Of a stretch of DNA of 64,000 nt, positions 6,401-63,838 are shown in pieces (position 1 is the stretch's first letter; each line of letters starts with the position of its first letter). A program made the translations under genes and the position numbers. This stretch comes from Amoebophrya sp. A120 (lineage: Eukaryota > Protista > Dinoflagellata). The notes beneath the pieces are model-generated. The model saw only the letters and a program-made list of their open reading frames with translations, was not told the origin of the DNA and ran no database searches. Location of the stretch: contig CAJINV010000004.1 of NCBI GenBank assembly GCA_905178155.1, positions 4,272,518-4,336,517 of the forward strand, in the 5' to 3' direction.

Positions 6401-9400
6401 CTCCACAGCGAAGAACTCGATGACCCCGACCGGGTTGACACGCCGTACAGCACGGGCACTCCGGCGTTTGAGGCGGAGCACCATATCGTATTTAAAAACG
6501 TCCCCACCCCAGAGTTGTCATGCGAATCTGCATGCTGAAAATGTTTATCATGCGGAGCCCCATGAGAAGCATTTTTCAGTCGTGTATTGGAGTTTGTCAT
6601 GCTGGAATCAGCATGATATACTAGATCTGTCATGCTGCTGAACTACCTCGCACAGCACTACACTACGGGGCCAAACTTGTCATGCGAAACAACTAAAGGT
6701 GGTTGATTTGTCTAGCAGATTTCCCATTTTGACTCTGGTGTGGGGACGTTTTTGCTCAGGATACACCAGATGGAGGGGTTATCCTCCGAACAGGAGGAAA
6801 ACCGGACCAGCAGCCGAATTGAGGTTAGCCAAGGGACCTCCGCTATCAAATGCAAAAATGTCTGGGTCTGGAAGAATCCAACTTGTTATGCTGATTTTGG
6901 ATTCTAAGAAAATCTGTATTGCATGAGCAGCAAAGAGACTCCAAGTTTTGCTACACGGAAAGAGCATTTGTCATGCGGTATAGGCATCAGGAAGCCCTCA
7001 CAAAATGTGTGATGCTAGGGCATGCATCACAGGCATCAGGAGTCATGCAAAATGTGCATGACAAACCTGGCAATCTTCCAGACCCAGACACTTTTACATT
7101 TGATAGGGACCGCCCCACAAGAACTCGAGCCGCAGTCGCAGGGTACTACCGCGAGTTCTGTCGTCGACCCAAACACGCCGGTGGTTTCGTTTCTGGGGGA
7201 GCAGCAGCAGTATCTGATGTCTTCGCGACAGAATTCCCCGCGAAACAGCGCGGCGACCGCCGTGGCTGGAGAAGGAGATGCTGGAAGTGAATCCGTTAGG
7301 GGACTACAGAAGAGCGGTGCGACTGAAATAAAATCCTCCGTCGCCACTGTTTTACCGGCAGGAAGAACGAACACGACTATTGCAAGAACCAAGGTAATTC
7401 CTGATACTGTCATCCTCCAAGAACAAGATGACTACACTAACGGTCGCGTTTCAGCAGCAGCAGCAGGAACTTCAAATGACCTCCGCCGTTTGACGCTGAT
7501 CAGCATGGAAACACCCTTCCAGAGCAAAGCGGACGAAACCGCGGCAGCACAGGCGTCGGCTAACACTGTTGCGTTGGTGCAGGACATCTGGACGCCGGCC
7601 GATGCAGTCATCAACGGAAACCTAGAAGAGCAGAAGCTGGAATTGACGAGAAGCGCTGTTTTCAAGCAGTTGCGGGAACTGCAACAGAAGAAAATCGTGA
7701 ACGACGAAAAAGTAATTTCCGACGTGAAAGCGCGCATCACGATCCCATCCGAAGCTGTCGAGCCGCACATGATTTTTCAGGACGGCATGCGGTTGACCTA
7801 CATTCACCCGGAAACCGGGGAGAAGTTGAAGAGGCCGGCGAGTCCCGAACGGAAAATCCGGGACAGGGATGGGGAGCGGAAATGGATCAAATTCGAAGAA
7901 GATTACAGTATCCAAATCACCGCAAACTACAACAATTGCAACGAGGAGTTGTTTGTTGACGGGAAAAAACGGACGGTTTCCATCCCGGGCGCCTGCTTCT
8001 TACCGAAGAAGGCACCAAGGATCAATTCCCGGCTGTTCACGTTCCGCAGGGATATGCTGTTGCCAACCTGGGTGAACCAATTCTCCGTGTTGTGGGAAAA
8101 GCGGCGAAAGTCTTTGGCGCACTTGGAGGAGATGCTGGACGCGTTGGAACTAGCCCCGGAGGTGCTGCAAAGGGCGTCGAACTTCCACGCGAACACCAGC
8201 AAAGTCAACTACACGGACCTAGATTTCGCAAAATTACCGCTGCAGCACAGCAACCACAGAGATGAAAAGGAGGGACGGCCAACGTGGAACAGCAACTTCC
8301 ACCAGCTTCCGAGCGGACACGTGTTCTCCGGGATCAAGCCCGACAGCCCGCGCCGGAAGTGGGTGCCGTTTGAGCGGAAGGTGCCGAAGAGTCTCATGCA
8401 GTGGTACGCCCTGAAACACCGGAATTCCGTCGAGGGGAAAGCGTGGTCGGAAAAGGTTGCGAATTTGAAACAGGCGGAACTCGATGAGCTACACGGCGGG
8501 AATAATGCTTTTACAAATGGCTATCCTTTGAACTACAAATCTTGCGCCGACGAGCATGCTCCCTGGTCGAAAGATACTAAAGTCGAAGGCCTCTTCTCCG
8601 ATCGGGACAAGAACCTGTGGAAAAAGCGCATGAAAACCATGCAGCAGGGGCAGCAGGCGCTGCGGTGTTTCCGGAACGCGCTGGACGCGAAATACCATTT
8701 TTCAGACATTTCTTCCCCTTTGACGCTAGACGCGTTTCGCTTGCAGCAACAGAAGTTCGAAATCCACGACGGTAATATGGACGACGATTACGGCATGATG
8801 GCAGGAGTTCCACTGTCGGCGGCCAACCCCTTTCCATCCTCCGCCTTCGATGGCCCCGGTAGTTCGGAGATGATGGGTAATATGAGCATGAAGCAGCCGA
8901 TAGCTATGATGACCGCTCTGGCGGAGGAAGATGAGGAGGAAGTAGCGGACGGTGGTGGTGCGGAGAAAGCAGAAAGACCACCTGAGGAGCAAGCTACTGG
9001 CCAGCTGCCCGCTGCCGCCATTGCTCCCGGTAGTTCCACGCTTTCCAAAACCTCCATCGCCTCTGACAAGGGCCTCCGAGCCAGCGCCGCTAACCAGGCC
9101 GCACCGGGAGATGTTCTTGAGCGAGGGTCCGATGAACAGCATTTGGACCAAGTGGTCGATTCCTTGAATGAGATCCACGCCGGTGTGGTCTCTTTCGCGA
9201 AAGGACAGAAAAACCCCTGGGCGGTAGCTCCTGCGGGAACTGCAGGAACAGACGGGCGGTCAAGCGTTAGCAGCACAAATTCGGCCGGGCAACAAGGGCA
9301 AACACTATCTCAGCTCGACCAGGAGCTTCTTCGGGACAGGCGGCAAACGATCTCGGAAATTCTCCGCCTTCTCCGGGACCGCAACACGGCGCTCGCCGTT

Positions 9401-12400
9401 GCCGCGGCGGAGGCGGCGGAACACGATCGCCAGTACGAGGAGGAGTACTTTCGCCATTTGCAGCATAATCAAGACCCGGAGGAAATAACGAATTACCCAC
9501 CCCACCAATACCTCCACTTGGCGGAAGAGTTGGGGGAAACCGCGTTGTACGAATGCGTCACCTTCTTGAAATCGAGCGACGATGTGGAACGGGAGATCGC
9601 TTTGTTGGAAAAGTACCTCTACGACACGGCCTTGGTCGGCGAATCTGCGGTTGGGAGGCTCGTCTCGGATTTGCACGCCTGGCGGACCGATCCGAGTAGA
9701 GATTTGCACAGGGATTCGAAAGTGTTGAAGAAGATGCAGAACAGTCACTGGGGAAACACGAAAAAAATCCCCGGGTTTGCGATCAAACACTTACTACCCG
9801 ACGTGAACTTGTCTTTGGTAGAACGGTTGAAAGCGCGTTCCAAACCGAGGCACGTGGTTCACAACAGGACACAGAGCTTAGACGAGAAAGCGAAAAAGAA
9901 CCGCGAGGCTGCGAAGAAACAGGCGGCGGATAATGCGCGGAAAAAGTTCGGCACGAGGTCCGGGAACGTTGCGAGCAGTGGGAATTTGGGAGGTGTTGAC
10001 AAGGCTACAACCCGAAAAAGCAGTACTTTTTCGCCGCGTCAGAGTTCCGTCAGACGATCCACACAGCAGCAGAATACGCAGGCAAGTCGAGCAGGACAAG
10101 AAGGTGCGATTGCCTCGATTCTGAAATCTACTTCCGAGCGGAGATCTTCGTCGAAAGGGAACAAAGGCACTTCATCTTCGCAGCAAATGTCAGTTCTGTT
10201 TCCGGCGCAGGTCGTGTCAATTCGAGAGTCCTCTGCGGACAAGGAGGGTGACAAGCTTCTCTCCGGCCATATCACAGGAAAAAGTGTTAACGTTAACGGA
10301 ATTTGTGATGCAGAAATGCATCACAAAACGTGCCAAAATTTGTCATGCATAGCATGCATGCTAGGCAAAATTTGTCATCCATTTTTGCAATCTATGAAAG
10401 CCGTTAACGTTAACACTTTTTCCTGTGATAGGCCAGGGGGAGTTGATCAGCACAAACGAATTCCGCGCTACTGGGACGGTTAGAGATGCTGGTAGTTCAA
10501 CAAAACAGTCGGCGAATAAGATAAACTTGGATTTGAATTCCGCGATCACAAGCGATGAGGCCCGCGAACTGAAAAAGATCGGCGCCGAGACGATGACAGG
10601 CGCCTTTATGGCCAAGCAGGGGATGTTTGAATCTTTTGTCGGTGGGCCGGTAGAACAAGAACCGGAAATGATGCTAGAAAGGAGCAGCAGCCGACTGGTG
10701 TCCGGCGACGGCGGTGTGGCGGATTCCGATAGGGGGCGCTCCGAACGTGCTCAGGCGGAACAAATGCTGGACCAGCAGCGAAAAAACACGACCCAGCAGT
10801 CATCTTCTTCTGTCCGGAGCTCCAGAACTTCTTCCGTTTTCAATAAAGGCTCGGCAATTCTAAGCAAGCAAAATTATGGATCAGAACATATAGAGCCAGC
10901 AGAATCCACCAACCCCAGCAAGCTTTCCCGTCCCTCCTTCAATCGGCCACAAACGACGGCACGATCGTCCAAGTCGTCGGTAGTATCAAAGTCGTCAGCG
11001 AAAAGTGATACTCAAGAAGGAGACAACATGGAGCAGGCTGCGTTGCGGCTTTCGACGGGGGCTTCGAGGAAGTCTAGCCGCCAGTCGAACCAGGAAGTAG
11101 AACAAAGCCAAGATATGGTAAAGCAATCCACAGCTTCCAGCGTGCGGAATAAAAGCTCAAAGATCAGTGAGGGCAAGAAGTCTTCCACTATGTCTGCTAG
11201 AACCTCAGGATCCAAAGTGAGTTTGAGCAGCGATAAGAAAGCCAGCAGCCGAATCGATGCTCCCGAAGACGATTCCGAAGCGAAGCAGAAGCTCTTAGAG
11301 CATTTGAACTCGCTCGGGGAGGTAAACAGTGACGGGAATGTTGTGCTGCCAATCGACGCGGTAAATCAGTTGCGGAGTTACTTGAAAAAGAGCACGGCGA
11401 GTCAGGAGCAGGAAGAGGAAACCTCCCAGAGACAGTCCTCCACCAGGAAAGTATCTTCTGAGATGTTGAACAAGGGCCCTTCAGAGAGAAGTGCCGCTTC
11501 TGACACCAAGGGCGCAGCTCCTTCTAGACGCGATTCCTCATCCAAGCGTAGCGGTTCGGAATCGTCTGACTCAAAGCAGATGAAAACACGTCGAGAACAA
11601 ACAGCCGCAAGTCGAGCTTGCACTGTCAGGCGAGAAGAGGAAGATGAGCAGACAGATGACAGGAAGCAAAAGTCGGAAAATTTCTCTCCGCGACAAAGTT
11701 CTTCTACGTCGCAAAGAATCAGCTTGAAGCGTGAAAGCAGCACCAAAAGAAGCGTTGGCTCTTCTCCAACATCTCGCGCGGAAAGCAAGACAGGGAGCGT
11801 CAAGCGGGAGAGTTCAGTTCTTCGCAACGCAATGGAGAAAACAAGCGCTGTCGAGCAGCGCGATAGCACCGTAGTTCGTCGCGACGAGGAGGCTGCGACG
11901 AGTGTCAAGCGCGATATCAGAAGTAGTACAACTTCCGGCGGCGCAGCTTCCGTTGTGAATACGAAACAAGACCAGGAAGAAGTTGTCGAGCGGGCTGTTT
12001 CATCTAGCAAAAAATCCACCAGCTCACTGAAAGACACGGACCGGGACGGGAGCAAGAAATCGACCAGTCGCCAGTCCGACCTGTTTGTGAGCTTCGAATC
12101 GAAGAACATCAAGGCTTCCACCGCCTCTGGTGTGAACGTGAACAACGGAGACGAGGTTGACAAAGACACCAGAAGGAGCACGGCAAAGCGGAGCATTTCG
12201 AAAAGAGGATCTTCTTCTAAAAGAGAGGCCGATGTCGGTCGTGGTGGTGAAGATGATGTTCCGGATCTACTTCGAGAGGAGCAGAAATCTTCCAAAAGAT
12301 CTGAGATGTCTGATGGAAAGAAGTCCTCTCGGCGTCGTGACAGCAGCGAAATGTTGAATCAAAACCCGAATAATTACAACACCGACATGGCGGACCGGAG

Positions 12401-15400
12401 TTCCGCGGACAGTCTGACTGCCGCGATCGTCGAGGGCCCGCGGGGCCCGAGTCAGCGCAGTCTAGGGAGCGAGGCCGCGCGCGCCGCAATGGAAATTTTA
12501 GATGGCGTGAACCTCGGGGCGTATGCGGGGGTGGCGAGGGCAAGCAGCACTGCTGAAAATATCAATAGCGGCGCACCAAAAGGAATAGGTGCTGAAGAGC
12601 AACAGCAGGAGGACAATGCTCTTGCGGGACGGACATCTACTACTTCTCGACCCTCCAGCAAGCGCAGTAAAAATTCCGGCTTCACTACGCAAGATATGCC
12701 CGAAGATCTTGACTACACCACCAGGAAGAGCAAGACTTCCTCGAGAGGCACCAGGGGCGCTGGCTCTGAAGTGAAGTACAATGACGTAGTGACCAGCCCG
12801 GAGGAGGCACCAGAGCAGTCTTCGGACGAGCAGCAAGTAAAAACGCGAGAAATAAAATCGTCGAGGGTGAAATCTGGGGAGCCGGGGGAAGAAGAGAAAG
12901 AGAGTTTTTACAACCCATATCGCAAGAAAAAAGTAGTACAGTCACACATTGTGTTGCAGGAACCGCAAGACAGACAACCTTTGTCATGCAGGAAATGCTT
13001 GCGAGCCTCGTTTCCTACATATTCCCCCTTATGATCTTTGCATTACTATACAAGTTTTCTCTTCCACACAGAGAGAATTTGTGATGCAGAAACTTCAACG
13101 AATGTGTAACTGTAACACTTTTTTCTTGTGATAACCCACTAAAGAAGAAGAGTAAAACTTCCTCCCGAGGAACGTATGCATTGCAAAAGTGTCTGGGTCT
13201 GGAAGAATGCAACTTGTGATGCTGCATTTGGATGTTTACAAAATTTGTGTTGCATGAGCAGCAAAAGGAATCTATTTTTTGCTACGCGGAGAGGGCATTT
13301 GTAATGCGGAATAGGCTTCAAGAACCCCACAGGAGTCCTGTGATGCTAGGGCATGCATCACAGACGTCATGGCTCATGCACGCCGTGCATGACAAGTCTC
13401 AGAATCTTCCAGACCCAGACACTTTTACATTTGATAGAACGCGAGGAGGTTCGAAAGTCCCCTTCGCCGACGTGGCAAGTAGTTCAGACGAACCCAGTAA
13501 GCGACAGACGAGGCAATCCGACACTGCTGTTCCTCGTCGTCGTGCTGGGAGTAGTTCAACAGCTTCGGAGAAAAAACAAGACTCTGAAGACTTTGTCCCA
13601 GCAGCGGATAAGAAGAGCAAGACTTCTTCCAGGGGGACCCGCGGTGGTTCTGACGTGCGGTACGGGGACGTCGATAGTGTCGCTTTGGACGTGGACCACG
13701 ACAAGAACTCGGGAGTAGAGCAGGAGTACGCTCCTGGCACAACGCCGCTGCAAAGTGACGACCCGCGGTCTTCGTCAGACAAGTTTTTCACGGGTCTGAG
13801 CAATCCGATGCTGTCAACATCCGTTGAGCAGCAAGAGGACGGGGGGAAGTCTTCACAGAAAAAATCCTCGAAAATCTCATCTTCTTCGAGGATCGAAAAA
13901 TCCTCTAGATCCGGCAGTTCCAGTTCCAAAAAGGCTGAAAATCAAAATTCAGCAAATGCTGCAGCTACTTCATCGTCAAGGATCTCCCATCACGACGTGT
14001 CTGATTCGGAGGCGCAGCAGCATCTCATGGATGAAATCAGGAGCACCGGCGTTATCGGCTTCGACGGCACCACGCTCGATAACAAGAAGAGCGAAACCAA
14101 CCGAGATAAATATGGACAACTACTTCCTGACAGTTCTTCTCCGCAAAGTGGGCAGACGGAGTTTCTCACAGCCTTGAGCCACGACGACGAAGCTGCCGCT
14201 GTTGATCAAGGCGAAGAGAGTCAAAGACCTGGGAGTGCCAACAGCAACATAAGGATGCCATCGAGTTCTTTCTCCAAGAAAAGTTCCAAAATTTCCACGC
14301 AACAAGACCAATACCAAAACCTCGCTGAAGACGCCAATTTACACGAGTCGACGGATATCCTGCACCATGATGTTTCGGAGGACGAAGCCAAGTCGCATTT
14401 GATGAAAACCATCATGAGCATGAACACAATCAACCTCGACGGCACGACGCAGGACAAGGATACGACGGTAAGAATTTCCCAGAAAAATTCGTTGATCCAA
14501 GAGGTGGATGAAGTAGAGAAGAAATCCAGCCGAGAACAAGAGTCGACCGCTTCACGGGGTAGTGGTACGTCGAAGGAGAACGAGAGTAGTACCAAGGACG
14601 CCGAAGAACTGCACAAATCGACGAAAATTTTGCACCCGGACGACGTGTCGGAAGAGGAAGCGAAGGATCACTTGATGAAGACCATTATGTCCATGGGGAC
14701 AGTGACCTTCGATGGTGGAATCTCGCAACCGAAAGAAGAACCAGAAGAACCAGCGCATGACATGGTGAATCTGACGCCGTTGGAGAAGGACGCGAGCCGA
14801 GGGAGCCTGCTGAACGACGACAGATCTTCTGGGAAGAGGTCGTCTGGATCCGGACCTTCGCAGGCGAGCAATGCCACAAATGCCGTATCGCAGCAAAGAG
14901 GAATGGACACGAGAGGCATGCTGTTGACGTCGTCCCAGAAAGGCACAAGTGGCACACAAGATCTGGACAACATCACTGCGGGCATCATGGAAGACGAAGC
15001 GAATAAAAGTTCCTCTGCCCCCGATCTGCACCTCCACGCCGATCAGCTTATGAAGCAGAGTGTGATTGCGGAGAACATGAAAAGCAGGATTTCCAAACAC
15101 AATGTAACGGAGGAAGAGGCGAAAGATCATTTGATGGATGAGATTCTCTCAATAGGCGTCGTCAACCACGACGGAACCAGCGGTTTTCGGGAAGACCATA
15201 TTGTACTGGAAAAACAACCGACGCAGGGACTGGTGGAGGCTACAGTTGAAAGCGGGGGCGGCTCCTCGAACTTGGCGGAGGAGTCCCTCTCTGTCTCTGT
15301 CGCTTCTCCGTCTGCTCGTGGTGCAGGAGGTCCCTCGGGATTAGAAGAAAGTGCCTTTTCTCAAGTAGAGAGCGCCGCAAACAACACGGTGAAGATCCAC

Positions 15401-17432: not shown

Positions 17433-19807
17433 ATGGGCAACTCGGCAAATGCGTCGGCCTTGTCACGGGATGACATCCACGGCATCGCCAGCTTCGGCGA
17501 AAGGGACATAAAACGCCTCTACAACCGCTTTCGGGCACTGGACAGTGACGGCAGCGGGTAGAAATATCCTGCTCAAAGAAGTTCTGCCTGCGTATGGTTT
17601 TTGATGGTCGTCTTTATGGGGACTAAAATCAAGGTGGGAGGATCGAAGTCGTCTCTATACAGATTCAGATTGTGGTGACCACGCTGTTTTATTCTGACAA
17701 ACTGGGTACTATTTCTATTTGCTTCATCTAGCAAACCAAAAAACCTCCACAGGCAGCTCGATCCCGCGGAGATTTTTTCTGTCGCCGAACTGAACGAAAA
17801 TCCGCTGGTGCAACGAGTAATAAACGTATTCGATGCGGTATGACAGTGCACAACTCCCCCTCCTCCTCATTTGTCATGCAAAATACCCAATCCCCCCGCT
17901 GCCTCCTGGCACTGTTTGCATGACGAGTTCTGGTAGCCCAAATAGTACTGCACTCCAGTGAAGATTTGTCATGCAAAACCGACATTCTCGCTGATGCCTG
18001 TATTGCCTTATTGGGGCGACTTGCTGTGGTAGCGCTCGGCTTTTGTATGTTGAGGTCGCCGAAAGTGCTTCCTCGCCCACCCCCCGGGGAGGGGATCCTT
18101 GACCTGTGGCGCTGGGTGCGGGTGTCCACTACATGATGATGATGATTGCCGTTCATGCTATACAACTGAGGGGGTGCAGGGGGGGTTGTGCACTGTCATA
18201 TGCGGATAACAGCGGTAGCGTTTCCTTCATCGAGTTTCTCGTCGGATTGGCAAAACTAGCAGCCGGGACGAGCGAAGAACACAAATTGAACTTTGCGTTC
18301 AACATCTACGACGTATAAAATCTTCAAAATGACAGAGTTTCTTCATCTCTTTGTCTATTGTTGATTTGTTTACACAAGAACGACTCTGTAAATGTTTCTA
18401 TTTGCTCCTGCGAGCGCGTCTTTGTTCTCTGTCTGCTTTCTTTTGGACCACAAATAGCTTGACTGCAAGAGCGGTCGCGGGTGGAGCTATTTGCATTTTC
18501 CTGCCAGTTTTAATATTAACAATCAACATAGGTGGCGAGGAACACGAATCACTCATTCTATCAGGTAAACAAGGATGGCTTCATATCAAACGGGGACCTG
18601 TTCCAAGTCATGAAAATGATGGTCGGCGATAACCTTACACAAGAACAGCTCCAACAGCTTGTGGATCGGCAGATGGTACTATGAAATGAAATATGCGGCC
18701 GTGGTGTCTCCGATACCTCTCGTGGTTGCATGTTTTTTGTTGAGCAGGCAGCTGATGTGAAGTAGATTCTTTCCGTCGCACAAAAAAGTACTAGTGACAC
18801 CAGGGAGGCTAGCAATCACGTATTGTCGCTGAGTCATCATCTACATCTTCTAGTTCTAACTACAGCAGCACAAATTTATATGTAGTGAGGTCACCGAACG
18901 GTTCTAACCAGGGAGTTTTTTTGACAGCTACCCTGAAAAACGACCGGCAGTTTTCAATCGGCCGGAAGTGTTTTTGCACATGAAAAGTTTCCATTTATCA
19001 ATCGGCCGGGGCTTTGATAGCAAACAAGCCCGGGCGGATTCTATCGGTTCCCGATTGATAAAACGACGCAGGGGAGCCGGCAAAAAGGGCGCCCTTCCGA
19101 GACGCCCGGCGCACCTATTTCCGTCGATTTGGGGCGCCCAAAAAGTGGCGCCAAGAAAATGCAAAGCAGACAAAAACCGTGAATCCGCATGGTATGGGCC
19201 GTATTTTGGCCCACTTTTGGAGGTCGCAAAGCCGGCCACCAAAAGCGGGCATTTGTAATGCGGAGAGCAGGGCAAAAAGTGCGACTTTCCAACAAAAAAA
19301 ATGAAAAAATGCGAAGGCCGCCAAAGTCTGTGAGCTAACCCGCATGCTACGGGCCCGATTTGGGGCGCCCAAGGGGCCGGCCCTGGCGGAGGCCCTTGGG
19401 GGGCCATAGCATGCGGGAAAGTGTTTCGATTCAGGAGGCGGCAGCGGCGCGGCTTTTCAACAAAAAAAACCAAAGGACGCAAATCCCGCCAAAAGCAGCA
19501 TGCCAACCCGCATGCTATGGGCCCGATTTGGGGGGCCCACAGGGCCGACCCTGGCGGAGGCCCTTGTGGGGCCATAGCGTGCGGGAGAGCGTCTCTACTC
19601 TGAAAAGAGCAAAAAGACCCGGCGTCGTCCAGTCAAAAAGACCCCGCGTGACCTCACTACCCCCGCCTCGGCGGCTATATTTGGTAACTCAATTCTTCTG
19701 TTCAGGTCCAAGCCGATAAAGATTACGACGGCAAGCTCTCCTACGAAGAATTCAAGGCAGCGGTGAAGAACATAGGAATAGCAGAGCAACTGTCGCTGAA
19801 GATCTAG
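17433..19807 (+). CDS. CNB1: Calcineurin regulatory subunit B (4 EF-hands, N-terminal MGN myristoylation-type start), ~176 aa
   Basis: Exons 17433-17557, 17753-17838, 18206-18312, 18565-18675, 19706-19807 give [108 protein letters not shown]. Three GT-AG introns plus one TIR insert. Confidence 0.95.
17839..18200. mobile_element. Introner, family C, with a nested ~138-bp insert
   Basis: TATGACAGTGCACAAC..GTTGTGCACTGTCATA; TSD tgcgg. Interrupts EF-hand 2 of calcineurin B. Confidence 0.95.
18882..19660. mobile_element. GC-rich TIR element inside a canonical calcineurin B intron
   Basis: 13-bp inverted repeat GTAGTGAGGTCAC (18882) / GTGACCTCACTAC (19648-19660) plus subterminal matches. Internal ~85-bp direct repeats at ~19337 and ~19505. 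TSD unclear. Confidence 0.6.
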
Positions 19808-19945
19808 CTGTGACAGTACGGTTGTTGACGCGGAGTAGCAGGACAAGTGCTGAAGAAGATTCTCCGTTGCAGTAGCGTCGAGCGAGCTGCAGCTACGGGA
19901 AGTAGAACTGGGCTCTGACGTTGGTCCGTCGTCTACACCACAGAA

Positions 19946-49498: not shown

Positions 49499-52400
49499 AT
49501 GTCCTCCACCACCTCCTCAACCAATGGCAGCAAAAGGTCGACTGGTCCCCGGGTGACCTACCTGATAGAGGACGTGAGCGCGGCCTCGAAAGACCGCAGG
49601 ACGAATGGAGGCGGTAACCAGAATGGCGGGGGACCGCCTGTCACAGAGCCAGACGAGTACGATCTGACCCCCGCGAACAACAGCCCTGTAGACGGCATCG
49701 ATTTTCTCGGGGCGACCACCTCCGACGGAAGACAGCAGCTTCAAGACGGTCTACACCGCTTCCAACTGTCCCAGGAGTACCAGGCTCTGGACAATGCGAT
49801 ATCCTGTGCAAAAGTATCGTACTCGTAGTAATTGCAGTCATGCATTACTAGAAATCTCCTTCTTAACCTAAATCCGCATTACAAATTCCATTTTTCATGC
49901 TGAGCGAATTTGTCATGCGATTTCTACTAGTGCGATGCTTTTGCATTTCATATGCGATGGCGATGAGCGACTTCCTGCGGTCGAGCGGCAGTAGCATAGT
50001 AGCTTCCTGCGGTGAGCTAGTTGACGACGCGATGTTGAAAACGACCTCCGACATGAAATCCGCATCCCTGCGAATTTCAGAGCCGCCTGCACCAGCAGCA
50101 TCCGGTGGCGGCGCACCAGTAGGTGTAGAAGCTGCAGCTAGCACAGATCCTGAAGCCAATCGTCTAGAATCAGCTTCGACGAACAAGAACCGTGCACGAC
50201 GACGAGGCAGCACGACGAGTGGCGAAGAAGACCAAGACCATGAAGAGGACCACGCAAACCTTCATCTGCGCACCGGCAGCATGGAGTGGGGGCTGAGTGA
50301 TCTTCTCAACGCATCCGATGCGAACGAAGAGGACATGAATAACCTCGACGGTTTTCATTTACCCGTGCTCGGTGGGAATGGTAATGGGGGAGGTGGTGCA
50401 GCTGCAGGTACAACTCGTGCAGCAGCCGGTGGAACAGGTGCAGCTAGTATCAACCACGACAATCTAGACCACAGTGCCTTCGCTTCCGTAAAGGACGAAA
50501 AGTCCTTTTCGTATTCCACACAAGAACTGCTACCGCAGGAGGAGAACAAATCCAGTTCCTCTACGCAGCACGAAGCTGCTGTCAACCGGCTTTTCCAGGA
50601 GGACCAGTGCGAAGACGACAAAATCAGCTCCATGCTACAGAAAAACCAGGAGTTAATGGACGAAGTGAACAGCCGGGGCGGGTGGAGCAAGTCTACGGCT
50701 TCGTACCACAGTGGTCAGGAAGACGTCGATAATTACACCTCTCCGCAGGAGGACCTACTTCACGCTGGCCGTCCACGAGGACAAGCAACGACGACCCGGA
50801 ATTCATCATCTGCCGGAAGTTCTTCCTTGACGAGTTTCAATCTGAGCAACACGGTCACTATGCAGCCAGCTGCTACAGCGACCACTTCCGGGGGCAGTGG
50901 CCGCGGTGCGCCATCCTCCGATCCCCATTCCTTTGGTGGAGGTCGTGCGGGTTCTGGTTCATCTTTTCCCGAGGGTTTCATTTTCTTTGCGCCGGACCAA
51001 AATTTCAATTCCACCAATTCGAGAAATGTTCTTAATAAGGAACCCCGCGGCGGTGATTGTTCCTCCAGCCGACGACCGGCTATTGCGGCTTCTTCTGGAC
51101 AAGAAATAAACAACGGCACTTCGACGAGTGCGTTTGGTTCGTCTTCTTCATCCTCGTCTTCGGCCGCAAACAGCTTTTCTGGAGCAGCCGCTGCAGCTGG
51201 GGACGAGGACTTTATTTCTAGCAGCTCTTGTTCTGCCACTGGCACTGACGACAACGAGAGGACGAACGCGGATTTGACTAAAGGCGGAATGATTTCAAAC
51301 ACCGTAAGCAAGCAAAAGCCAGTACCTCGTCCCGCTTCTGTCGGCGCCGCGAAAACGAAGTTCTTCGTGCGGAACGATATCTACGGGACCGGTTCGGCGT
51401 TTCAAGTCGATTTCGACCACGAACGGGCGCGCGTGCAGGAAGAAGCGAACTCGTGGCAGAGGAAGTTGGCGACGGGCGGCCGGGCAGGTGGTGGTCGCAG
51501 TGGAAACACTGCAGCGGGTCGTGGATCTTACGAAGAAGACAACAGCGCATCCTGGTCCACCGGGGGGACGATATCGAGGAAAACAAAGCTACCTACGGCA
51601 AGCTTCACTTTTCTTTCGTCATCGGGGGAGGCTGGCGCTGAAGGTCTTGGTGCAGGCAATGTCGATGACGAGTATAGTAGACACACACATGACGCATCTG
51701 TAGTTGGAAGAAGCACTAAGCCCGAAGAAGATGAACCTCCGCGGCCCCGCTCTGTCACAACACCAAAGTCGCGTACCCAACTCCTGATTTGGCCCGAGCA
51801 CGGAAGTCGAAGCAACCAGACGAGTAGAACAAGTTCATGGCGTAGCAGGACTAGAAGCGTTTTTGGGCAGCAGTGCAGCGCTCGCACGAATTTTCTGTTT
51901 TACAATTCGCCACGGGCGGGAGTTGGTGGTGCGAACGAGCAAACGGGAGGAGGTAGTTCGTTTGCAAATGACGGAGTTTTTACAACTGGTGTTGGAAATA
52001 CAGATGCTTCGGCAAACGATACTCATACTGCAACTGCCGCAGCCCTCGATGCTACTACGAGGAGGAACAGCAGCTCCAGGCCTTTTTCTTACTTGAACCA
52101 CAACTCTCTGTTCCCGTATAATCCGGTTCCCTCCACTTCTTCGCAAGACGGACCCCCGAAAGTGATATCGCTCGAGCCCACAAGCGCCCGCTCCCCGAAC
52201 TACCGGCGATTGTACGACTTTCTCGGAAGCACGCCGAATGAGAAAAACTTGAGCGCCGGTGCGATCGGGATCGGCTTGGTGCCAGGAGAGAAGAAAAAGT
52301 ACACCAACAGCTCTGGTGGCACAATTTCTCTTTGCCGACCCAACTTTCTACCCGAGGTAGATTGCGTCTCGGGGGTTTTTTCCAAACTAAACCCGAGCAG

Positions 52401-55008
52401 GCTGCTGTTCCCCTCTGGCAGCTCTGCGTCGGCGTCAGCAGCAGCAGGAGCAACAGCGGCTGGCTCAGCTGAACAACCCGACGTCGGCACTACAGCACGG
52501 CCCCCTCCTGTCCGCACCCCGGAGCGGCTTCGGAAGATTGAGCAGCAATACTCCGAGCTGTACTCCCCCATTCGAAAGCGGGTTTTGAGCCCCAAACACC
52601 CTATGGCGGTGGCGTCCACGGGTTACGTGGGCTCCCGGCTGCAGAGTATCCCGCCGCTGCAGCAGGCTCACATCGCCAACGACATACACGTGGCTTCCAC
52701 GCTGATCCAACAGCCCAGCCCAAACAAACTGTATCTGCATTCGGAGTCTCTGACTGCGGGTAGCGAGTATTTGGGTTTCGGGCTGGCATCAACAGGATCT
52801 AGTAGTACTCGTCTGGGCAGGGGCGGAGGTGGTGATCTCTTCGCGAAGTCCGCGTTCGCATCGCCGCGTAAACGGGACTGGAACCACGATCGGGTTGTCC
52901 CCGGCGGCGCGTCGACGAGAGCCATGAGCAGCGGCAAGGGAGATAGGGTGCTTTCTCCTTCATCTCTGACCAAGATTGATGATGAGATGAGAGGACACCA
53001 AAGCAGCAGCCTCTCTATGCCACGCCACAGCAAAATAAACTTGTTCACCGCCTCTCTGAAAGACGAGGAGCGGAGAAGGATGAAACCCAACTACGCACAC
53101 CTTACCGACGACCTTCTGAAAGAGGAGCTTACCGGATTGAGGAACTACTACCGGAAAGTAAATCGGATGACAACTACATCCTCGCGCGCAGCCTCGTCGC
53201 CGGGAGGGATCAGGAGAATGAGCGGAGGTGGTGGACAGATTTCTGTCTACTCGTCCCCGAGAATTAATACTCCGGGCGCAACTGCTGCGAGTACTGCAAC
53301 TACTACCCTTCGCATTCCACAGCCCCGGACGAGCTTCTATGCGGGTTCTAGTTCCTCACAACTGGGGCTGATGTCAGATCATGCCGCAGATTTTACGCCG
53401 TCACACCACCACGACATCAAAGTCAACTACTTCACGAATCGTGCTTCCCTGTCCTCAGCCAGAAGCCGACGGGATTATAGCCAAAACTATACCCAGTCAA
53501 TCCACAGTGAAACTCTCTACCCGCTAATTGGCACCGCGTACAACACTTTACACAACAGCGCGACCACCTTTGCAGCCTCCGCCCGGGCGGCGAAGATGAA
53601 AATTCGCGTTGGCAACCGCACGTCCAGTCCCTCCCTCTACAAAACCGAAACAGCCCGCACGACCCCCATATGAATGTGTCAGGTTTGAAATGGACAAAGT
53701 TGAAATAATTTGCCATGCATAAAATGGATGCCAGTTAGACCTGCAGTTTGTAGTCGGTGCATGACAAATTTTCCCGGTCCTGGAAGCGAGTCTGTCATGC
53801 GGTTTAGGGCAAAAGAGCTGCCTTCTGTCATGCTCGTCAGCAGTCCAACTTTTGACCCTTACCAGGACTATGATCTGCCTCCCTTGCGTCCTCTGCAATA
53901 GAGTCAGTTTTTGTATCGCATTTTATGCATTACAAGTTATTTCAACTTTGTCGATTTCAACTCTGACACATCCATACCCCACCGCCGACAAGTACATGCA
54001 GCGCCACGCGGGGACGTATGCAGGAAAAAACACCCATCCCCATCCAATTTGTCATGCAAAACATGCATAAAATCCACTATTTGTCATGCAAAATATGGAT
54101 GGGGATGGGTGTTTTTTCCTGGATAGGACGCCCTTCAGCCGGTTCCTGCACAGCCGTAGCCGGATATGGAATGCGAATTTATTTTTATTCCTGTACAGAT
54201 ACAAGATTGATACATCACAAATTATTTCGCGAACTTACTTTACTGATAGAAGAAGCGTACCCCTACATGTCATGCTCTGAATAGGATTTTTCTTGTATGT
54301 GCACCGGATGAAATTTCCTGTGGATACCGGAGCAGAACGCCACTAAACGGAAGTAACTTGTCCGGGGCTTTTGGCGGGGAGAAAATCACGCTGGAGTCGC
54401 CTACTTGTCGTTCGGACCGAAGAGTGCTCCAGGGGAACTACGACTCTGCGTCAGCTCTGATTGTGCGGGATTTTGTGGACAAAACGAACACCAGTTTTGA
54501 TGCGGTGTTTGGCGCCGGCGATGATATTACGGGAAGAAGTGGGCCGACGTCGAGGACAACTGGGGAGCGGGTGCAAGAGGTGCCGTCGGTGTTGAACAAT
54601 ACGTCGAACTTCGGTCTTGATCGGGCGGATGATCGATACAACTCCGGTACTACAACTAGCAGAACATCATTTCTTTCTCCATCGCCATCCTCACGAAGAA
54701 TAGGAAAAAATAGCGACGCGCACTGTTTTGCTCCGCAGAATCGTGGTGGTCGTGGAGGAGCAGGACAACTGTCCTCCTCTTTCATCACCTCTTCAATGAA
54801 CCAGCACGAGGACCAAATCGTGGATCACGTGCGGCAAAACCTGACGAAAATCCGGCAAAATCACTTCCGGGATTTGGAGCAGATTTTGAGTCCGCCGGGG
54901 AAGCGGATTCTCTCTGCTTTTGATGACCATAATCGGGACCACCTGCGAGGTCCTCTTGCCAGGGGAATGCGGGGTAGTGGACGGAGCGACTTTTTCTATC
55001 GGGCGTAG
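49499..55008 (+). CDS. Large S/G/T-rich low-complexity protein of unknown function
   Basis: ORFs 49463-49828, 49897-53673 and 54358-55008 join in frame after removing inserts 49800-49952, 53669-53976, 54017-54125 and 54165-54326 with one TSD each. Confidence 0.75.
49800..49952. mobile_element. Introner, family B
   Basis: Family-B TIRs; TSD tgcga. Confidence 0.93.
53669..53976. mobile_element. Introner, family H
   Basis: TATGAATGTGTCAGGTTTGAAATGGACAAAGTTGAAATAA..TTATTTCAACTTTGTCGATTTCAACTCTGACACATCCATA; TSD cccca. Confidence 0.93.
54017..54125. mobile_element. Introner, family J (109 bp)
   Basis: TATGCAGGAAAAAACACCCATCCCCATCCA..TGGATGGGGATGGGTGTTTTTTCCTGGATA; TSD ggacg. Confidence 0.95.
54165..54326. 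mobile_element. Introner, family K (reverse of 62477-62630)
   Basis: TATGGAATGCGAATTT..GAAATTTCCTGTGGATA; TSD ccgga. Confidence 0.85.
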
Positions 55009-55990: not shown

Positions 55991-58050
55991 ATGGGGAGCG
56001 ACGACGGAGGCAGAAAAGTTGCGGTCATGTGCGCCGCTGCGGGTGCCTATCCTGAGTAAAAACATACCCACACCAGAGTCAGGATGGGGATTGTGCAACA
56101 CAAACCTAGGAGTTTTGTGAGTCACGCATGACAAGTTGCACTCTGCAGTGTAGTGCAGGTTAGCAAGTGCAGCCGCGTCACAGATTCATCTGCTCATCCT
56201 GTTCACAGCATCACAAATTCCAAAACACGACTGGAAATGGCTCTCATGGGGATGCGCATTACAAGTCTTCCTGTCTTTGCAAATCTGCATTACAACTCTG
56301 GTGTGGGTATGTTTTTACTCAGGATAGTGCCCTGGCGCTAGGCAGTCTTGCTGCGTACTACGCAGTCAGCAGCATGTCGAGCTCATCATCGAAAAACGAG
56401 TTTGACGGAAATGTATAATTAAAAGACTAGCTTGATTCCATGGGAGTTGCATATCCATACTAGCAGCGTCATCTCGCATTGCTTGGCAGATGCGAATGAT
56501 TGAGGATCGCCCTTGCTACTGCATGTACACGCATGCGCCAGTTTTCCTTACCATTTTACTTCTACCGGTCGTGGTTTTGTGAGCAAGACAGGTTTCTCGA
56601 TGAATTCAAATGCAACTACGAAACAGGTGACTGCCGCCCAGATGGTGCAGCTTTTGGAGGAAATCGTGGAGAGTCAGCAGGATATGAAGCTATGAACTGC
56701 AAAACAAGTATTGTACTCGTATGAATGCATTACAAATTTCCGCAGCATGAGAAATAAAATCTGTAATGCGGATATGCCTCTAAGAAAAATATTTGTCATG
56801 CATCATTGCAGTACAAGTGCGATACTTTTGCACAGGATAGAAGCGAATGATGGACGATTTGATGCAGGAAATTACCGCAAAGGACCTCAGCTTCGCCGAA
56901 ATATGCGCCTTGGTGCAGCAGAGAAAACCAAGGGATCTGCTGGAAGAGAAAAACATTTCGATCAAAAGATTCTCAAGTATTTATGCTGCCGCGACCAAGA
57001 TTTTGCTTCTCTTGCCAATAGCAATGTCCTAATCACGACAAACAGACCTTGAACGGATTTTCCATTTTGATGTTTTCTGTGCTTCCTGTTCCTCTTCCTG
57101 CCGTCAGCTTGCAATGCAAGAAAACAAAACTGCTTCATCAGGTCTCCTCGAAGAATTTAGTCACAATCCAACGATTCGAGCAAAGGTGGTGCAGCTCACG
57201 CAATCACAGGCGGAACCCAGCAGCTCAAAAAGCGTATTGATTTCTCATGGTTTTTGTGAATAGCATATGGCAGCAACACTGCAAGATGACGTGGTGTGAT
57301 GTATATTATTGTTGATGATCTTCGAAGGGCGTCGTGTGGTTCCCAGTCTTATTTCTCAACCAGACAAAATCCTGTATCACAGACCATATCACCGGAGCAC
57401 GTAGCGAAGCTTGCGGAGAAGCACAGTGTCACGGAAGTGATCGCCATTCACGAGTACATGCTTATGCACTGCAAAAGTTGTATCGTACTAGTACAAATTG
57501 CATTACAAATTGACTTAGCATAACAAATTGAATTTGTAATGCGGATTTGCCTTTTTAGCAAAAAGATTTGTACTATATGCATAAACGCAGTTAGTACGAG
57601 TACGATAGTACTTTTGCACAGGATAATGCTCGAGCAGCTGCAATCCATCCTGCGAGAAACCACGAGCACGGAATTTAGCTCCAGGGTTGCAACCATTAGT
57701 AGCCAAGCCTTCGTCGCCAAACTTGTGAAGAGAAAGTAAGATACTCTTTTTCATTTGCATTCTTCCTTTTTCAAGGATGTTTTTCTCTTTTGTGGTTCCG
57801 CCCCGTTGCGAAAGATAAAGTTTTTTGCTTTTGGTACTTGTTGAACCTGAACGTGAGGAGGCGGTATCCTCGTTACATAACCTCTATCAGGTATGGCCTT
57901 TCCAGCGAGGAGCTTGAAGCCGTAGTAGCGAACTATCAGCAACAGTTGGGCACGAACGACCGGTTTTTTGAGCTCGGAATCGAGATGCGGGAAGCCGTCC
58001 AGAGCTTGGTGAAGAAAGCGACCGCAAGCGGAGGACCGGCGGTGGCGTAG
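55991..58050 (+). CDS. Small helical protein with an N-terminal hydrophobic anchor, function unknown
   Basis: MGSDDGGRKVAVMCAAAGA|LALGSLAAYYAV..VTAAQMVQLLEEIVESQQDMK|RMMDDLM..EVIAIHEYML|EQLQSIL..YGLSSEELEAVV. Three TIR inserts and several GT-AG introns; middle exon boundaries uncertain. Confidence 0.7.
56048..56326. mobile_element. Introner, family D (near-identical reverse complement of 43348-43626)
   Basis: TATCCTGAGTAAAAACATACCCACACCAGAG TIR; TSD gtgcc. Confidence 0.95.
56691..56839. mobile_element. Introner, family B
   Basis: Family-B TIRs; TSD gaagc. Confidence 0.92.
57463..57625. mobile_element. Introner, family B
   Basis: Family-B TIRs; TSD atgct. Confidence 0.92.
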
Positions 58051-58664
58051 GTGAACGGTAGTGGTGTCCAGCTTTCTGCTGACGTGTTTCATTGGATGTC
58101 TTCTGCCGACGTGTTTCATTACACATTGCAGCGCTTGTGTTTGTCTTCATTCGATGTTGTCGAGAAGACGGGACCATACAAGAAAGTGTGTCGTGTTGCA
58201 GCAGTGCAACTGGTTCCTGTGCGAATTTTCCTGGAGAAGCTCCGCGCTCTTTATTGCAGCCTTGCAAGATGAAGTACTCCGACAAACACAAATGAATCAT
58301 GGATGAAGATGATGAACACGACAGAGTTGAAGATAGTCGCTTCAGCAAGCGAGTTCGCATGTTGAATATGAATACGGAACACTGAACAACAAAGGATAAA
58401 ACGACAATGATACCACACAAATTGAACGACACGACAACGACGACCGACATACTGAACATGGTTCTTCTTCTTCTACAATTCTTCAACGAAAGAAATAAAA
58501 ATTAATGCGCCGACTCTTCTTAAAAGAGTGCAAAAGCAAATGAACAACGAATTCGGAAGGAGAACACCCAGATGATCCCAGCTGAGAATCGGGATGCTGA
58601 TAGTAGCGGCTGTCTTTGTGTTCTTGCGGCCTCTGTCGTCTTTTCTTTGAAATGTGTAGTGACT

Positions 58665-60030: not shown

Positions 60031-60402
60031 TCTTCACGGCAACAAAATTACCGATCGCGACTGCCGTGGCCTTCGCTATATGTTGTTTGGTTCTGGTTGG
60101 AGATCCTGGCGCGTTGACTCTTTTTCCACATTTTCTTTAATGTCCGCTCTCGTGTTCTTTCCGGATCTTCGCTCCCCATGCAAGCAAGGAGGTGAAGGAT
60201 CGGCTTGGGTTTAGATCTGCAGTGCCCGTTGATCTTGGGCTGATGTCTTCTCGTCAATCAATGAATATGAAGATGGCGATGCATTGCCATTGCCGCGTCT
60301 TCGGGCCTCATCAATCTGTTACTATCGATCGCGTTCATTGAGTTCCTTCGTCCGTTGTACTTGTATCCGACATGAAGCACTAGAGCCGCAGCAAATGCGC
60401 AC

Positions 60403-63400
60403 ATGAATAAGGGCCAGCGCGTGTTTCTCGAAGCGTGCAAGATGCGGTCGCTCGCTTGGTGCCGGCGACGTAGACGGCGACGAAGGAAAGGCAGTGTCGC
60501 CCGCCGAAATAGAATCAAGACCGATTCTGAATCAGAAACGACCGCCCGGGCCAAAGCAGCGCTCTTGCGCAAGGGGGGACGGCTGGTTTCTGAGTGCAAC
60601 TGTTTTTCCGAGCTTCAACAGCGGGAGGCCTTCTCAGTCGTCGCTGCCCTCTTTGCTTTTCTGCTAACCGTGCGACACAAGCTCTTTTCGTTCTATTCCA
60701 CTGACGCTGACGAGGTTATAATTTCATCTGCGGATCATGGGCATTTCCCCCTGCATCGACGACCTACTTCACCCTACTTTTTCGCCCGGGCCGCTGAAGA
60801 TGTTCACACCACGACAAGAAGAACGACAACATCTTCAGCACCGACGACGCACCTGCAGCTGACTCTCGACGAAACCCTGCAGTGCCAGGGCAGCGAGTTT
60901 ATCCGGAGCCACGTCTGGGGGCATTTGAAGCAGTACACGGAGAACTGGATGGACATCCCGATCCGGGACAGTACCATGTTTGAAAAACTGGTCTTGGCGA
61001 TCGACCACAACAGCCTCCTGGAGCAGCACGCGGCGGACTGCGGGTTCGGGCTCCTGGTCCTCCTCCTCGGCTCCCTCCGCTCGATGGACTACAACCACGG
61101 CTCGGCAATCGCGCTCTACTTTTACAGGTTTGTGATCGACCGGCTGCTGCCGGATTTGCGGGAGCTCTTCGCGTTGGACCCGGACCGGGTGAACGCGGCG
61201 GGCTGGGAAAAGCTGCTCGAGAACGAAGACGCGTTGATTGAGGACGAACTGGTGCCCTACGGTCCGATGCTAGGCTACGACCCCGCGATCGATGAGTCGC
61301 CTCACCCCGGGGTGCCGCCGCCCGGGGCGTATCCGTGCAAACATGGGTACGGGCTGTAGTGGGGGTTGTGTTTTCTACTTTTTCATCTTCCATACCGCTA
61401 GAAGTACGAGGACCCACTAGCGTGTATACGCTTTGATTTTGGTTGTAAGTGAAATTGTTTCTGTTCAGGCATAACTACGACGACGGACGTTGTACGTAGA
61501 GGTACCAAGAACAAACTAAAACAAGGTTGAAGATTTTTATCTACGACTTCCCGGACCTGACTACCGGCCCGCTCCATTGCCACCATGGGCTTATCAAGTG
61601 CAAAAATGTCTGGGTCTGGAAGAGTGCGTGTTTGTCATGCTTGTGTGGCATGACTCTTGAATCTGTCATGCACGTTACCCAAGCGCTCCAGTCCATTTTT
61701 CCGTCATGCAGGAACGCAGTTTGTCATGCAGAATAAGTAGGCAACACCTAGAAGCTCAGAAACTTGTCATGCTGGGCCAGCACTTGTGGCCTCATCATGA
61801 TTCGCCACCCAGCATCACAAGTTTCCAGACCCAGACATTTTTGCATTTGATATCCGAGTGGGGCGTCGAAACGCTCATCCCCGAGTGGATTCGGCGCAGC
61901 GAGTGCCACACGACCGACGTATCAACTACAATCATGTTTCAGTCTGGGAGATCATTGCGAGATTTGTCATGCTAGTTTGGCATGACTCTGAACTCTGTAT
62001 TGCGTGGCAACGAAGAACTCCTCTTGTCTGTCATGCAAAGTCGCAGTGTCTCATGCGGAGTACGCAACTCAGAACCGCGGAAAGACTTGTCATACTGGGC
62101 AGCGCATTACAGTGCGCTCACTATTCCTTTTCTTGCATCACAGGTTTCCAGACCCAGACGTATTTGCACTGCATACGATGGCGCGAACGCGGATTTCTAT
62201 CTCGTCCCCTGGTACACGTGGTGCCAGCGCATGGTGATCCCCTTGAACCGCTCCGACGGGGAGATTGACGCCGTGTACGTGTCCATGATGAAGAACGAAC
62301 GACTCACCTATTTCCGCAAGAACGAGGGCGCGGACCACATTTTCCTCATGTCCGACCAGGGACTGATTTTCTGGACCAGCTGGCGCGACTACGTCCCGCA
62401 CAGCATCTTCTTGACGACCGAGGCGTTTACCCCGAACTGCGGCAGGCCCTGCCACCAACCCTGGAAGGACATCGTCTATCCACAGTAAATTTCCCGTACA
62501 CATACAAATGCAGTCTCCGCATGACAAAACTTGCCTTCAATCCTACCCCAGCATGACAAGTTGGGCTCTGCAAGGTAGCGAAATTTGTCATGCATTTTGT
62601 ACATGATGTACAGGAAATTTTCATTTCATATCGTCATCCCCGGACACACCGACTACTTCCGGAGCCGGCGCATGCGGAAGTTTGACTTGCCGACCAACCA
62701 GCGCCCTCTCCTTTTCAACTTCCACGGGAGGCACGCCTACATCCTGAAACAGCTGGGGAGGCAGAATTACGCGGCCAACACGCTAAGGAGGCATTTGGTG
62801 GATCTGTTCGGCGACTTCGAGGAGTTCGGGGAGGACGAGGAGTATTTGGAGAGTATCAAGGCGAAAATGATCGACAAAACGGTGCCAAAACCCTACCACG
62901 GTCGCATCTCCGTCGGCGGCTTCACGGATGACTTCTTCGAGCGGATGGGCGCGAGCCACTTCTGTCTCGTGCCGCACGGGAACACCAGCTGGACGAACCA
63001 TCTGTACAATGCATTTTTCGCCGGCTGTATCCCGGTGATTTTGTCCGACAACATGGAGGTGCCGTTCGAGGATCTGCTCGACTGGAAAATATGCAGTGCA
63101 AAAATGTCTGGGTCTGGAAGCTTTCCAGGTTTGTCATGCATATTTTGCATGACCCAGAATTGTTTGTGATGTATGCCCTACCATCACAGATTTTCAGAAC
63201 CCTTCCTGATGCCTATCCCGCACGACAAATGCCCTCCCCGCGTAGCACAAACTGGGCTCCTCTTGCTGGTCATGCAATACAGATTTTTTTAGCATGCAGA
63301 GTTAGCATGACAAGTTGCAACCTTCCAGACCCAGACATTTTTGCAATCCATAGAAAACGTTCTCGGTGAAGTGGAACCAGGAAAATATCAGCGAGAGCTT

Positions 63401-63838
63401 ATTCTTATCCTGTGCAAAAGTATCGTACTCGTAGTAATCGCAATCATGCATTACAAATCTCCATCCCAAGGTAAATCAGCATGACAAATTGCATTTCTCA
63501 TGCTGAGCTAATTTGTCATGCGATTCATACTAGTACGATACTTTTGCAATGCATAACTCTACGATTTGCAGAAGTTCTCCTACCAGCAGATTTTCCAGAT
63601 GAAACAGGAAGTCGCGAAGCACCAGTGCTGGTTCGACTACAATCTGCGCAACGCCTCGGAGTGCAGCCCCTACCAAGCGGTGATGGCGGTGTTGGCAAAG
63701 AAGGCGAAAATACTGCCGACCAAGTACAACTTCGGCAGCGAAGAAAAATGGTGGGGAGCGGTCGGGGGACCAAACATTTGGGACTACATGCCGGTGGGGA
63801 CAAAGGACAAATTGTTGGCGGCCCAGTGGGAACATTGA
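60403..63838 (+). CDS. Exostosin-family (GT47) glycosyltransferase; start codon uncertain
   Basis: LKIFIYDFP, ADFYLVP, GADHIFLMSDQG, KDIV|IPG, LLFNFHGR and MGASHFCLVPHGNTSWTNHLYNAFFAGCIPVILSDNMEVPFEDLLDW are typical exostosin motifs. Five TIR inserts and one GT-AG intron. Confidence 0.9.
61592..61852. mobile_element. Introner, family A
   Basis: Family-A TIRs. Flanks gggct/tccga do not match, but removing element plus 5 nt restores CHHG.WGVE. Confidence 0.88.
61920..62175. mobile_element. Introner, family A (second subfamily)
   Basis: Degenerate family-A TIRs; TSD cgacg/cgatg. Confidence 0.88.
62477..62630. mobile_element. Introner, family K
   Basis: TATCCACAGTAAATTTCCCGTAC..GTACAGGAAATTTTCATTTCATA; TSD tcgtc. 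Splits KDIV|IPG. Confidence 0.92.
63090..63352. mobile_element. Introner, family A (reverse orientation)
   Basis: Family-A TIRs; TSD gaaaa. Confidence 0.93.
63406..63555. mobile_element. Introner, family B
   Basis: Family-B TIRs; TSD attct/actct. Confidence 0.92.

Follow-up and report, generated by a model that had tools for sequence, protein, structure and literature searches.

What does a short motif do that is tiled through exon-interrupting elements of otherwise dissimilar sequence: does it mark them for removal from RNA, or does it serve their movement in DNA? The question is raised by a stretch of 64,000 nucleotides of the dinoflagellate Amoebophrya sp. A120 (contig CAJINV010000004.1, positions 4,272,518 to 4,336,517; hereafter the window), whose exons are interrupted by introners, non-coding elements with terminal inverted repeats (TIRs) and target site duplications (TSDs). 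We consider it probable that the motif is a putative double-stranded DNA binding site for an introner-mobilising protein, and that removal from RNA is set by the element ends and not by the motif.

The curated window set comprises 43 TAT...ATA elements in 10 families, 109-362 bp long except for one of 2,014 bp owing to a nested insert. Family letters A-K were assigned in this analysis, and only E and J are known to equal the labels of a preliminary description of this DNA. The TSD is 5 bp long, perfect in 30/43 elements, matching at 4/5 bases in eight, at 3/5 in three and at 0-1/5 in two. Among the 86 element ends, T occupies base 3 in 81 and A occupies bases 11-14 in 71-79. With a common TA(T) start, As at bases 11-14 and a 5-bp TSD, the ends form one group, and not the unrelated TIRs of the preliminary description. 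The exon at 62636..63088 is 100% identical to an Amoebophrya sp. A120 protein, and the exon-interrupting elements are the A120 introners published in PMC7789003. The text of that paper gives an inverted repeat (IR) of TAT, seven variable bases and As, a short direct repeat of 3-5 nt at the exon/intron borders, and RNA support for these non-canonical introns. Inverted repeats, direct repeats and non-canonical introns of the same organism are likewise found in the text of PMC12130899; our family lengths (about 109, 150, 160, 210, 260, 280 and 310-320 bp) agree with its A120 rows (41/58 rows), where most families are classed as TIR DNA elements of unknown superfamily (41/58 rows) and one as Ginger-like. 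Read depth over the elements is far above single copy.

Further loci were collected by scanning metagenome contigs of one assembly for a 21-base family A pattern, which gave at least 144 stretches in 141 loci; after removal of 9 redundant loci and merging of 5 pairs, 127 sequences (663,403 bp) remained. Two of their exons are 100% and 97% identical to A120 proteins, so the loci represent the same or a very close genome and no independent lineage. A motif-blind search of the loci (TA...TA ends plus a perfect TSD) detected 374 elements, a number raised by homology search to 535 copies, 391 of them with a perfect 5-bp TSD; exonic flanks are present in 366 of 476 classed copies. The family A TIR pattern has no match in viral contigs, and an Rfam scan of the window at gathering thresholds gave none.

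The 9-bp motif TTGTNATGC/GCATNACAA (the strict motif) occurs 110 times in the window (58 on the plus, 52 on the minus strand), and is indeed tiled through the exon-inserted families. The 43 elements hold 98 matches in 9,583 bp (10.2/kb), at least one copy being present in 41/43 (all but those at 40565 and 54165), vs a mean of 1.07 and a maximum of 5 in dinucleotide shuffles of the elements (n=200). Window exons, GT-AG introns and intergenic DNA lack it entirely (0 in 47,691 bp), so that its frequency in the background is far from equal (98 vs 0). Five large window elements (6,220 bp) contain a single strict motif, at 19253 in the repeat 18891-19663, and those at 2360-2947, 19946-21537 and 45045-46901 contain none; truncated element pieces at 1-1980 (506 bp) hold 11. 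The variable base N is C in 65 cases, A in 29, G in 14 and T in 2, and the extended consensus is approximately AAYYTGTVATGC. Among the positions given in the preliminary description, 54049 and 54081 are exact, 10304, 10319 and 10341 correspond to 10303, 10318 and 10340, and the site near 10373 is the variant TTGTCATCC. The four loci families missing from the window are all motif-bearing (1.0-2.9 strict copies per element). Outside the elements of the loci the motif rate is near background (intergenic 0.19/kb, exons 0.05/kb), with 80 strict matches outside recognisable elements in 514 kb. The motif may bear a likeness to the ApiAP2 motif TGCATGCA.

The sites are regularly arranged, as became apparent when they were called by a weight matrix derived from the families. 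A same-strand spacing of 31-33 bp is present in 34/43 window elements and in all 10 families, and opposite-strand sites cluster at 15-17, 34 and 47-49 bp. The best 3-bp spacing window takes in 6-10 of the 10 family representatives; among 5,000 null draws the maximum was 7, reached in 3 draws. The regularity is seen again in the loci alone, where, across 14 families (four not in the window), the 31-33 bp pair occurs in 5-11 (mostly 8-9) of 14 random representatives, with a null maximum of 5 of 14 in 2,000 draws; the power of a 16-17 bp lattice is 0.59 in the same set vs a null maximum of 0.53. Families B and new6 possess opposite-strand pairs 46-49 bp apart in place of the 31-33 bp pairs. The outermost inward-pointing sites are located 36-38, 45-48 or 56-59 bp from the element end, and a post hoc test on 18 family-level points, from families that are not fully independent, gives R(10.5 bp)=0.70 with a best period of 10.3 bp (p=0.003 with period search). 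Three helical turns between sites and whole turns to the end would be expected for a protein on one face of B-DNA. Furthermore, copies whose motifs lie on one strand only occur in both orientations (43348 and 56048, 96% identical and inverted), so binding to single-stranded RNA is not required. Shared motif, spacing and end phase fit a double-stranded DNA-binding protein, and to this extent the common cis-code of the preliminary description holds, in its transposase variant.

A chromatin or packaging signal, with sites for a nucleoid-type protein or for nucleosome positioning that favour the survival of elements in genes or their insertion there, would also produce helical periodicity, and both the 16-17 bp lattice, which extends across the whole interior and is not confined to the vicinity of the ends, and the frequent exonic flanks suit it. 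Such a signal is very unlikely all the same, given that the phase is locked to the element end and that the motif stays near background in intergenic DNA and exons.

Equally improbable in our view is a motif without current function, inherited by families that are deeply diverged offspring of one ancestor made of repeats of about 16/32 bp. The common TAT ends and 5-bp TSD do imply shared ancestry, and the spacers that separate paired motifs resemble one another slightly more than shuffled sequences do (mean score 6.3 vs 5.2), those of families A and C looking similar by eye. However, no pair of families exceeds the threshold for spacer homology, and with the motif and the terminal 14 bases masked, profile comparison of the 14 families yields only the weak pairs G-H and new6-new13; that the families are otherwise non-alignable, as first described, is thus borne out. 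Descent alone also fits poorly with end distances that differ by whole helical turns, without drift, and with motif bases about three times more conserved than their neighbours: against the local consensus, 439/11,579 motif bases mismatch (3.8%) vs 10.6% of the interior.

For the favoured reading, in which the motif serves mobility, the following course is proposed. A putative transposase, or its host cofactor, would occupy the sites cooperatively from one face of the helix and help to assemble the end complex, so that only array-bearing lineages would spread; after insertion, single sites would decay roughly neutrally. Comparable elements are the miniature inverted-repeat transposable elements (MITEs) with subterminal repeats, such as Emigrant, whose subterminal repeats are bound by Lemi1 proteins, and CACTA and hAT elements as cited in the same paper (passages of PMC1636448): they are likewise non-coding TIR elements with internal repeats in both orientations at set distances from the end. 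Unlike in Emigrant, as far as those passages describe it, the A120 motif is at most a loose copy of the TIR, is common to families that do not align, and fills the interior of elements that are introns, and its binding is here proposed by analogy. The candidate view that the TIR is a copy of the motif is loosely true for some ends only. The 5-bp TSD agrees with that of the Ginger/TDD elements TDD-4 and TDD-5, and the A120 ends begin with TAT in place of the TGTNR termini given for Ginger (passages of PMC2836005). PMC12130899 lists, in the text available, an 808-bp A120 family with integrase-like homology, a 5-bp TSD and TA/TA termini. No autonomous copy was seen in the window or the loci, the whole genome not having been given a dedicated transposase search.

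How the elements leave the RNA can be read from transcript-like contigs (runs X3-X6 of one sample, which are assumed to be RNA). Between 40300 and 48300 these contigs skip 13/13 elements together with one GT-AG intron, as a single record in three runs, and each skip equals the element length plus 5 nt; in a DNA-like run the sequence continues into the elements. Skipping affects copies of families A and C in either orientation. Ends of the skipped type are non-GT-AG, with G at +1 in 35% and AG as the last two bases in 9% of 210 copies. Where the TSD copies mismatch, the position of the cut can be bracketed (Table 1), and the brackets overlap such that, if one rule applies, the cut falls after TSD base 4. 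The intron is then likely N/TA(T)...ATA NNNN, the slash marking the cut. At 61592, where the two TSD copies share 0/5 bases, only a cut after base 4 yields GQWG, a string present in 23/28 other members of the exostosin family (three lack coverage of the site and two differ), and seven end-type introns in a locus gene mapped with A120 protein P0003 are compatible with the same cut.

The two ends are not equivalent. In splice-end analyses based on our own gene model, which recovers 32/43 window elements exactly, and on 342 exon-flanked copies whose TSD matches at 3/5 or more bases, changes of the first TIR base occur in 0/333 copies at the intron 5' end vs 9/332 at the 3' end (p=0.002), and those at bases 1-2 in 1/666 vs 13/665 (p=0.0009). 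This asymmetry at T (+2) indicates recognition in the transcript. Predicted canonical donors read GTA in 90% and GTAT in about half of the cases (n=101), so the element end provides a donor-like NTAT. Introners thus have the sense-strand U at +2 of U2-type introns, without the GT...AG ends. A fixed branch-like A is not seen in the 101 canonical introns, and a branch point at minus 7, considered as a candidate, is unsupported by them. For 40565 the TIR is predicted to form a long stem (z=-5.7). In the proposed model the intron 5' end would mimic the GTA(T) donor of the host, its first base being free and U obligatory at +2; the 3' cut would fall 4 nt past the terminal ATA without an AG, probably aided by pairing of the TIRs.

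By analogy, the nearest logic for this rule would be the paired-triplet code of the nonconventional introns of Euglena (5'-N3 CDG ... CHG N5-6/R; passages of PMC12501133), which are likewise non-GT-AG and cut at a fixed distance from complementary terminal triplets. The A120 triplets differ: they are TAT/ATA with spacers of 1 and 4 nt, derived from TIR and 5-bp TSD, whereas the CDG/CHG and N3/N5-6 code of Euglena, as given in those passages, is absent; and in contrast to that code the U at +2 is constrained at the 5' end only, like a spliceosomal donor. The literature searched describes neither the motif nor a fixed cut rule. The text and supplement text of PMC7789003 and PMC12130899, searched as text only, mention no shared internal motif, 31-33 bp spacing or end phasing, and passages of PMC11282704, PMC11453091 and PMC12005148 (reviews and a later Amoebophrya genome paper) add no internal motif. 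Internal code and splice rule are apparently undescribed; the elements themselves are known.

That the motif marks the element for removal, as the preliminary description proposed, is poorly supported, because the cut register follows the element ends, motif mismatch is near neutral and old introns occur without a site. The element at 40565 has no strict motif and three weak matrix sites and is still skipped precisely, as is that at 44914, in which 1.86 kb of motif-free DNA separates the last site from the 3' TIR. The motif mismatch of 3.8% is not below that of the 3' terminal T (9/332 = 2.7%, p=0.38), which is taken as the neutral reference; the 5' T shows 0/333, and TSD copies differ at 5.8% per site (79/1,360). 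Conservation of sense and antisense sites is similar (odds ratio 0.83, p=0.065). Among predicted introns without a family match at BLAST level, 5/9 with both element-type ends have no site, nor have 13/23 with at least one such end. One site-free intron, missing from A120 protein P0036, pairs 12/14 of its TIR bases, and lowering the threshold reveals no site in it.

Several observations weigh against a role in mobility. The phasing test is of the post hoc kind described above, and outward-pointing sites show no phasing to the end (p=0.28); the motif fits the TIR only loosely in the TATG-type ends of A, C and K, and in most families not at all; the G-U wobble test for RNA pairing of TIRs gives p=0.18; and no transposase was found in A120 according to the text of PMC7789003. 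The motif also reaches beyond the elements: GCATGACA is the top 8-mer in loci DNA matching no family (84 vs 14.8), and 14/98 predicted family-less GT-AG introns outside the window carry the motif (17 matches vs 2.6 expected), so that its reported scarcity in canonical introns applies inside the window but not outside it. Three of these 14 introns keep pairs 32-33 bp apart, 13/17 of the matches lie on the sense strand, and in one protein-mapped gene 4/5 canonical introns bear the motif. Recognisable exonic copies without a site amount to only 1/366; site density falls little with TSD decay (from 17.2 to 15.5-15.8 per kb), and motif mismatch climbs with it at about 0.7 of the interior rate.

These observations suit a redundant splicing mark of the host, in which a host or domesticated DNA-binding protein on the motif helps to recruit a U1-less spliceosome during transcription and carriers are therefore tolerated in exons. 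On this account one would understand why TIR-less canonical introns hold the motif on either strand with pairs 32-33 bp apart, why the family-less intron L021:15797 has kept it despite the loss of its TSD and most TIR pairing, why site-free exonic copies are so rare, why conservation is highest at the sense sites of the 5' half (mismatch 3.1% vs 3.8-4.7%, post hoc), and why motif-free elements with 5-bp TSDs are seen outside exons only; U1 snRNA is, moreover, undetected in A120 (text of PMC7789003). We nevertheless judge it unlikely, since single sites mismatch near the neutral level, 84/98 canonical introns and all of those in the window lack the motif, five of the nine old end-type introns do without a site, and the 3' cut stays precise despite the 1.86-kb insert. 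Motif-bearing canonical introns may moreover be relics, i.e. converted introners, given that 10/14 start with GTAT and that 6/18 with a matrix site match an element family profile. Quite unlikely, too, is a combination of both roles, in which a DNA-binding protein, perhaps a domesticated transposase, recognises the phased pairs in the gene and, taking over from the missing U1 snRNP, delimits introns while transcription proceeds; it would serve mobility and host splicing alike, including the canonical introns that keep the motif.

On balance we favour a site that is required by mobile lineages and individually dispensable after insertion. A redundant helper role in splicing keeps a small probability, since the motif persists in some canonical introns. 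A gene of 282 amino acids with 12 introns (L021:13050-16366) contains a graded series of young introners, family-less end-type introns and motif-holding GT-AG introns, which suggests conversion of introners into canonical introns.

The elements of the window are compiled in Table 1. The EF-hand gene that hosts 17839..18200 is probably calcineurin-B-like.

Table 1. Introners and other repetitive elements of the window. "Skipped" refers to the transcript-like contigs; cut positions are counted in TSD bases.
Position	Feature	Remarks
1..1980	truncated or duplicated family C and A pieces	11 strict motifs
1596..1820	family B element	left end TAG, TSD 4/5
2360..2947	intergenic TIR element	5-bp TSD, no TTGTNATGC; own motif CGTTGAG x9, both strands
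6484..6763	family D introner	TSD 5/5, 3 strict motifs
6844..7105	family A introner	TSD 1/5, 3 strict motifs
10270..10430	family E introner	TSD 5/5, 3 strict motifs (10303, 10318, 10340)
12918..13133	family F introner	
13175..13436	family A introner	
17839..18200	family B introner	in EF-hand gene; nested ~140-bp insert
19946..21537	large GC-rich element	TAT-starting TIR, 5-bp TSD, no strict motif, matrix site 21384; downstream of stop codon
25521..25674	family C introner	
25721..25939	family B introner	
26853..27004	family C introner	
28690..28951	family A introner	
35728..35877	family C introner	
36427..36693	family A introner	
36876..37097	family B introner	TSD 3/5
37215..37487	family A introner	TSD 4/5
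38061..38210	family C introner	
38773..38921	family C introner	
38976..39245	family A introner	
40565..40728	family C introner	no strict motif, 3 weak matrix sites; skipped; cut after base 4, 5 or 6
40876..41080	family F introner	skipped
41157..41413	family A introner	TSD 3/5; skipped; cut after base 4 or 5
41590..41900	family G introner	skipped
41964..42273	family H introner	skipped
43081..43301	family F introner	skipped
43348..43626	family D introner	5/5 strict motifs on + strand; skipped
43863..44082	family C introner	interior replaced; skipped; cut after base 2-5; orientation opposite to 40565
44159..44418	family A introner	skipped
44625..44853	family B introner	TSD 3/5; skipped; cut after base 1-4 (at or before base 4)
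44914..46927	family C introner hosting 1,857-bp element	2,019 nt skipped precisely; cut after base 1-5
45045..46901	large GC-rich TIR element	TTAGA start, 5-bp TSD, no motif; between host's last motif and 3' TIR
46995..47247	family A introner	skipped; orientation opposite to 41157
47710..47983	family A introner	TSD 4/5; skipped; cut at or before base 4
49800..49952	family C introner	
53669..53976	family H introner	
54017..54125	family J introner (109 bp)	motif pair 32 bp apart (54049, 54081)
54165..54326	family K introner	no strict motif (one 8-mer)
56048..56326	family D introner	4/4 strict motifs on - strand; 96% identical to 43348, inverted
56691..56839	family C introner	
57463..57625	family C introner	
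61592..61852	family A introner	TSD 0/5; base-4 cut alone gives GQWG, exostosin family
61920..62175	family A introner	
62477..62630	family K introner	
63090..63352	family A introner	
63406..63555	family C introner	

The large elements were originally set apart from the introners, and apart from the one strict site at 19253 they do lack the motif; they share, however, the 5-bp TSDs and T(A/T)-starting TIRs. That none of them interrupts an exon directly is true with the qualification that 45045-46901 sits inside an introner and is spliced out together with it. This nested element starts with TTAGACAAGG, like the IR consensus reported for strain A25 (TTA, two purines, ending in G), and lies within a TAT-type introner of A120; no transposase-like open reading frame was seen in it. 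An insert of about 140 bp with an (ATG)n tail, which by its sequence looks SINE-like (short interspersed nuclear element), is present at 18009-18150 and L021:10410-10545 (98% identical), each time inside an introner.

The element at 2360-2947 and a similar one in L037 possess 5-bp TSDs, TTGGTT-type ends and their own repeated 7-mers on both strands, without the motif described here. In all, 5-bp-TSD TIR elements with tiled motifs of their own are located at 2360-2947, L037:2011-2333 and L017:3606-3787, and the tiled repeats among them are CGTTGAG, GTTTAGA and AAATATT. A separate motif of this kind would be predicted if every transposon lineage used a binding site of its own. A copy of the 2360 flank resembling an empty site occurs near 360-400. 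The repeat at 18891-19663 lies in a canonical intron and has homologs of about 77-80% identity in L059 and L062. The region 1-1980 holds duplicated fragments that resemble genes, along with truncated elements of families C and A, runs of plant-type telomere-like TAAACCC occur near 200-240 and 2050-2170, and 58671-60080 is GC-rich (about 70%), without the motif and without a clear TIR/TSD pair.

How A120 excises its non-canonical introns although U1 is undetected, and by what means they move when no transposase is known, are questions that PMC7789003 leaves open in its text. The motif pairs, 31-33 bp apart and phased to the element end, provide a defined double-stranded bait for the putative mobilising protein, and the rule N/TA...ATA NNNN with its sense-specific U at +2 could replace ambiguous boundaries in the annotation. 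The splice register of window positions 40564-47987 and 61591-61856 is possibly the most useful outcome.

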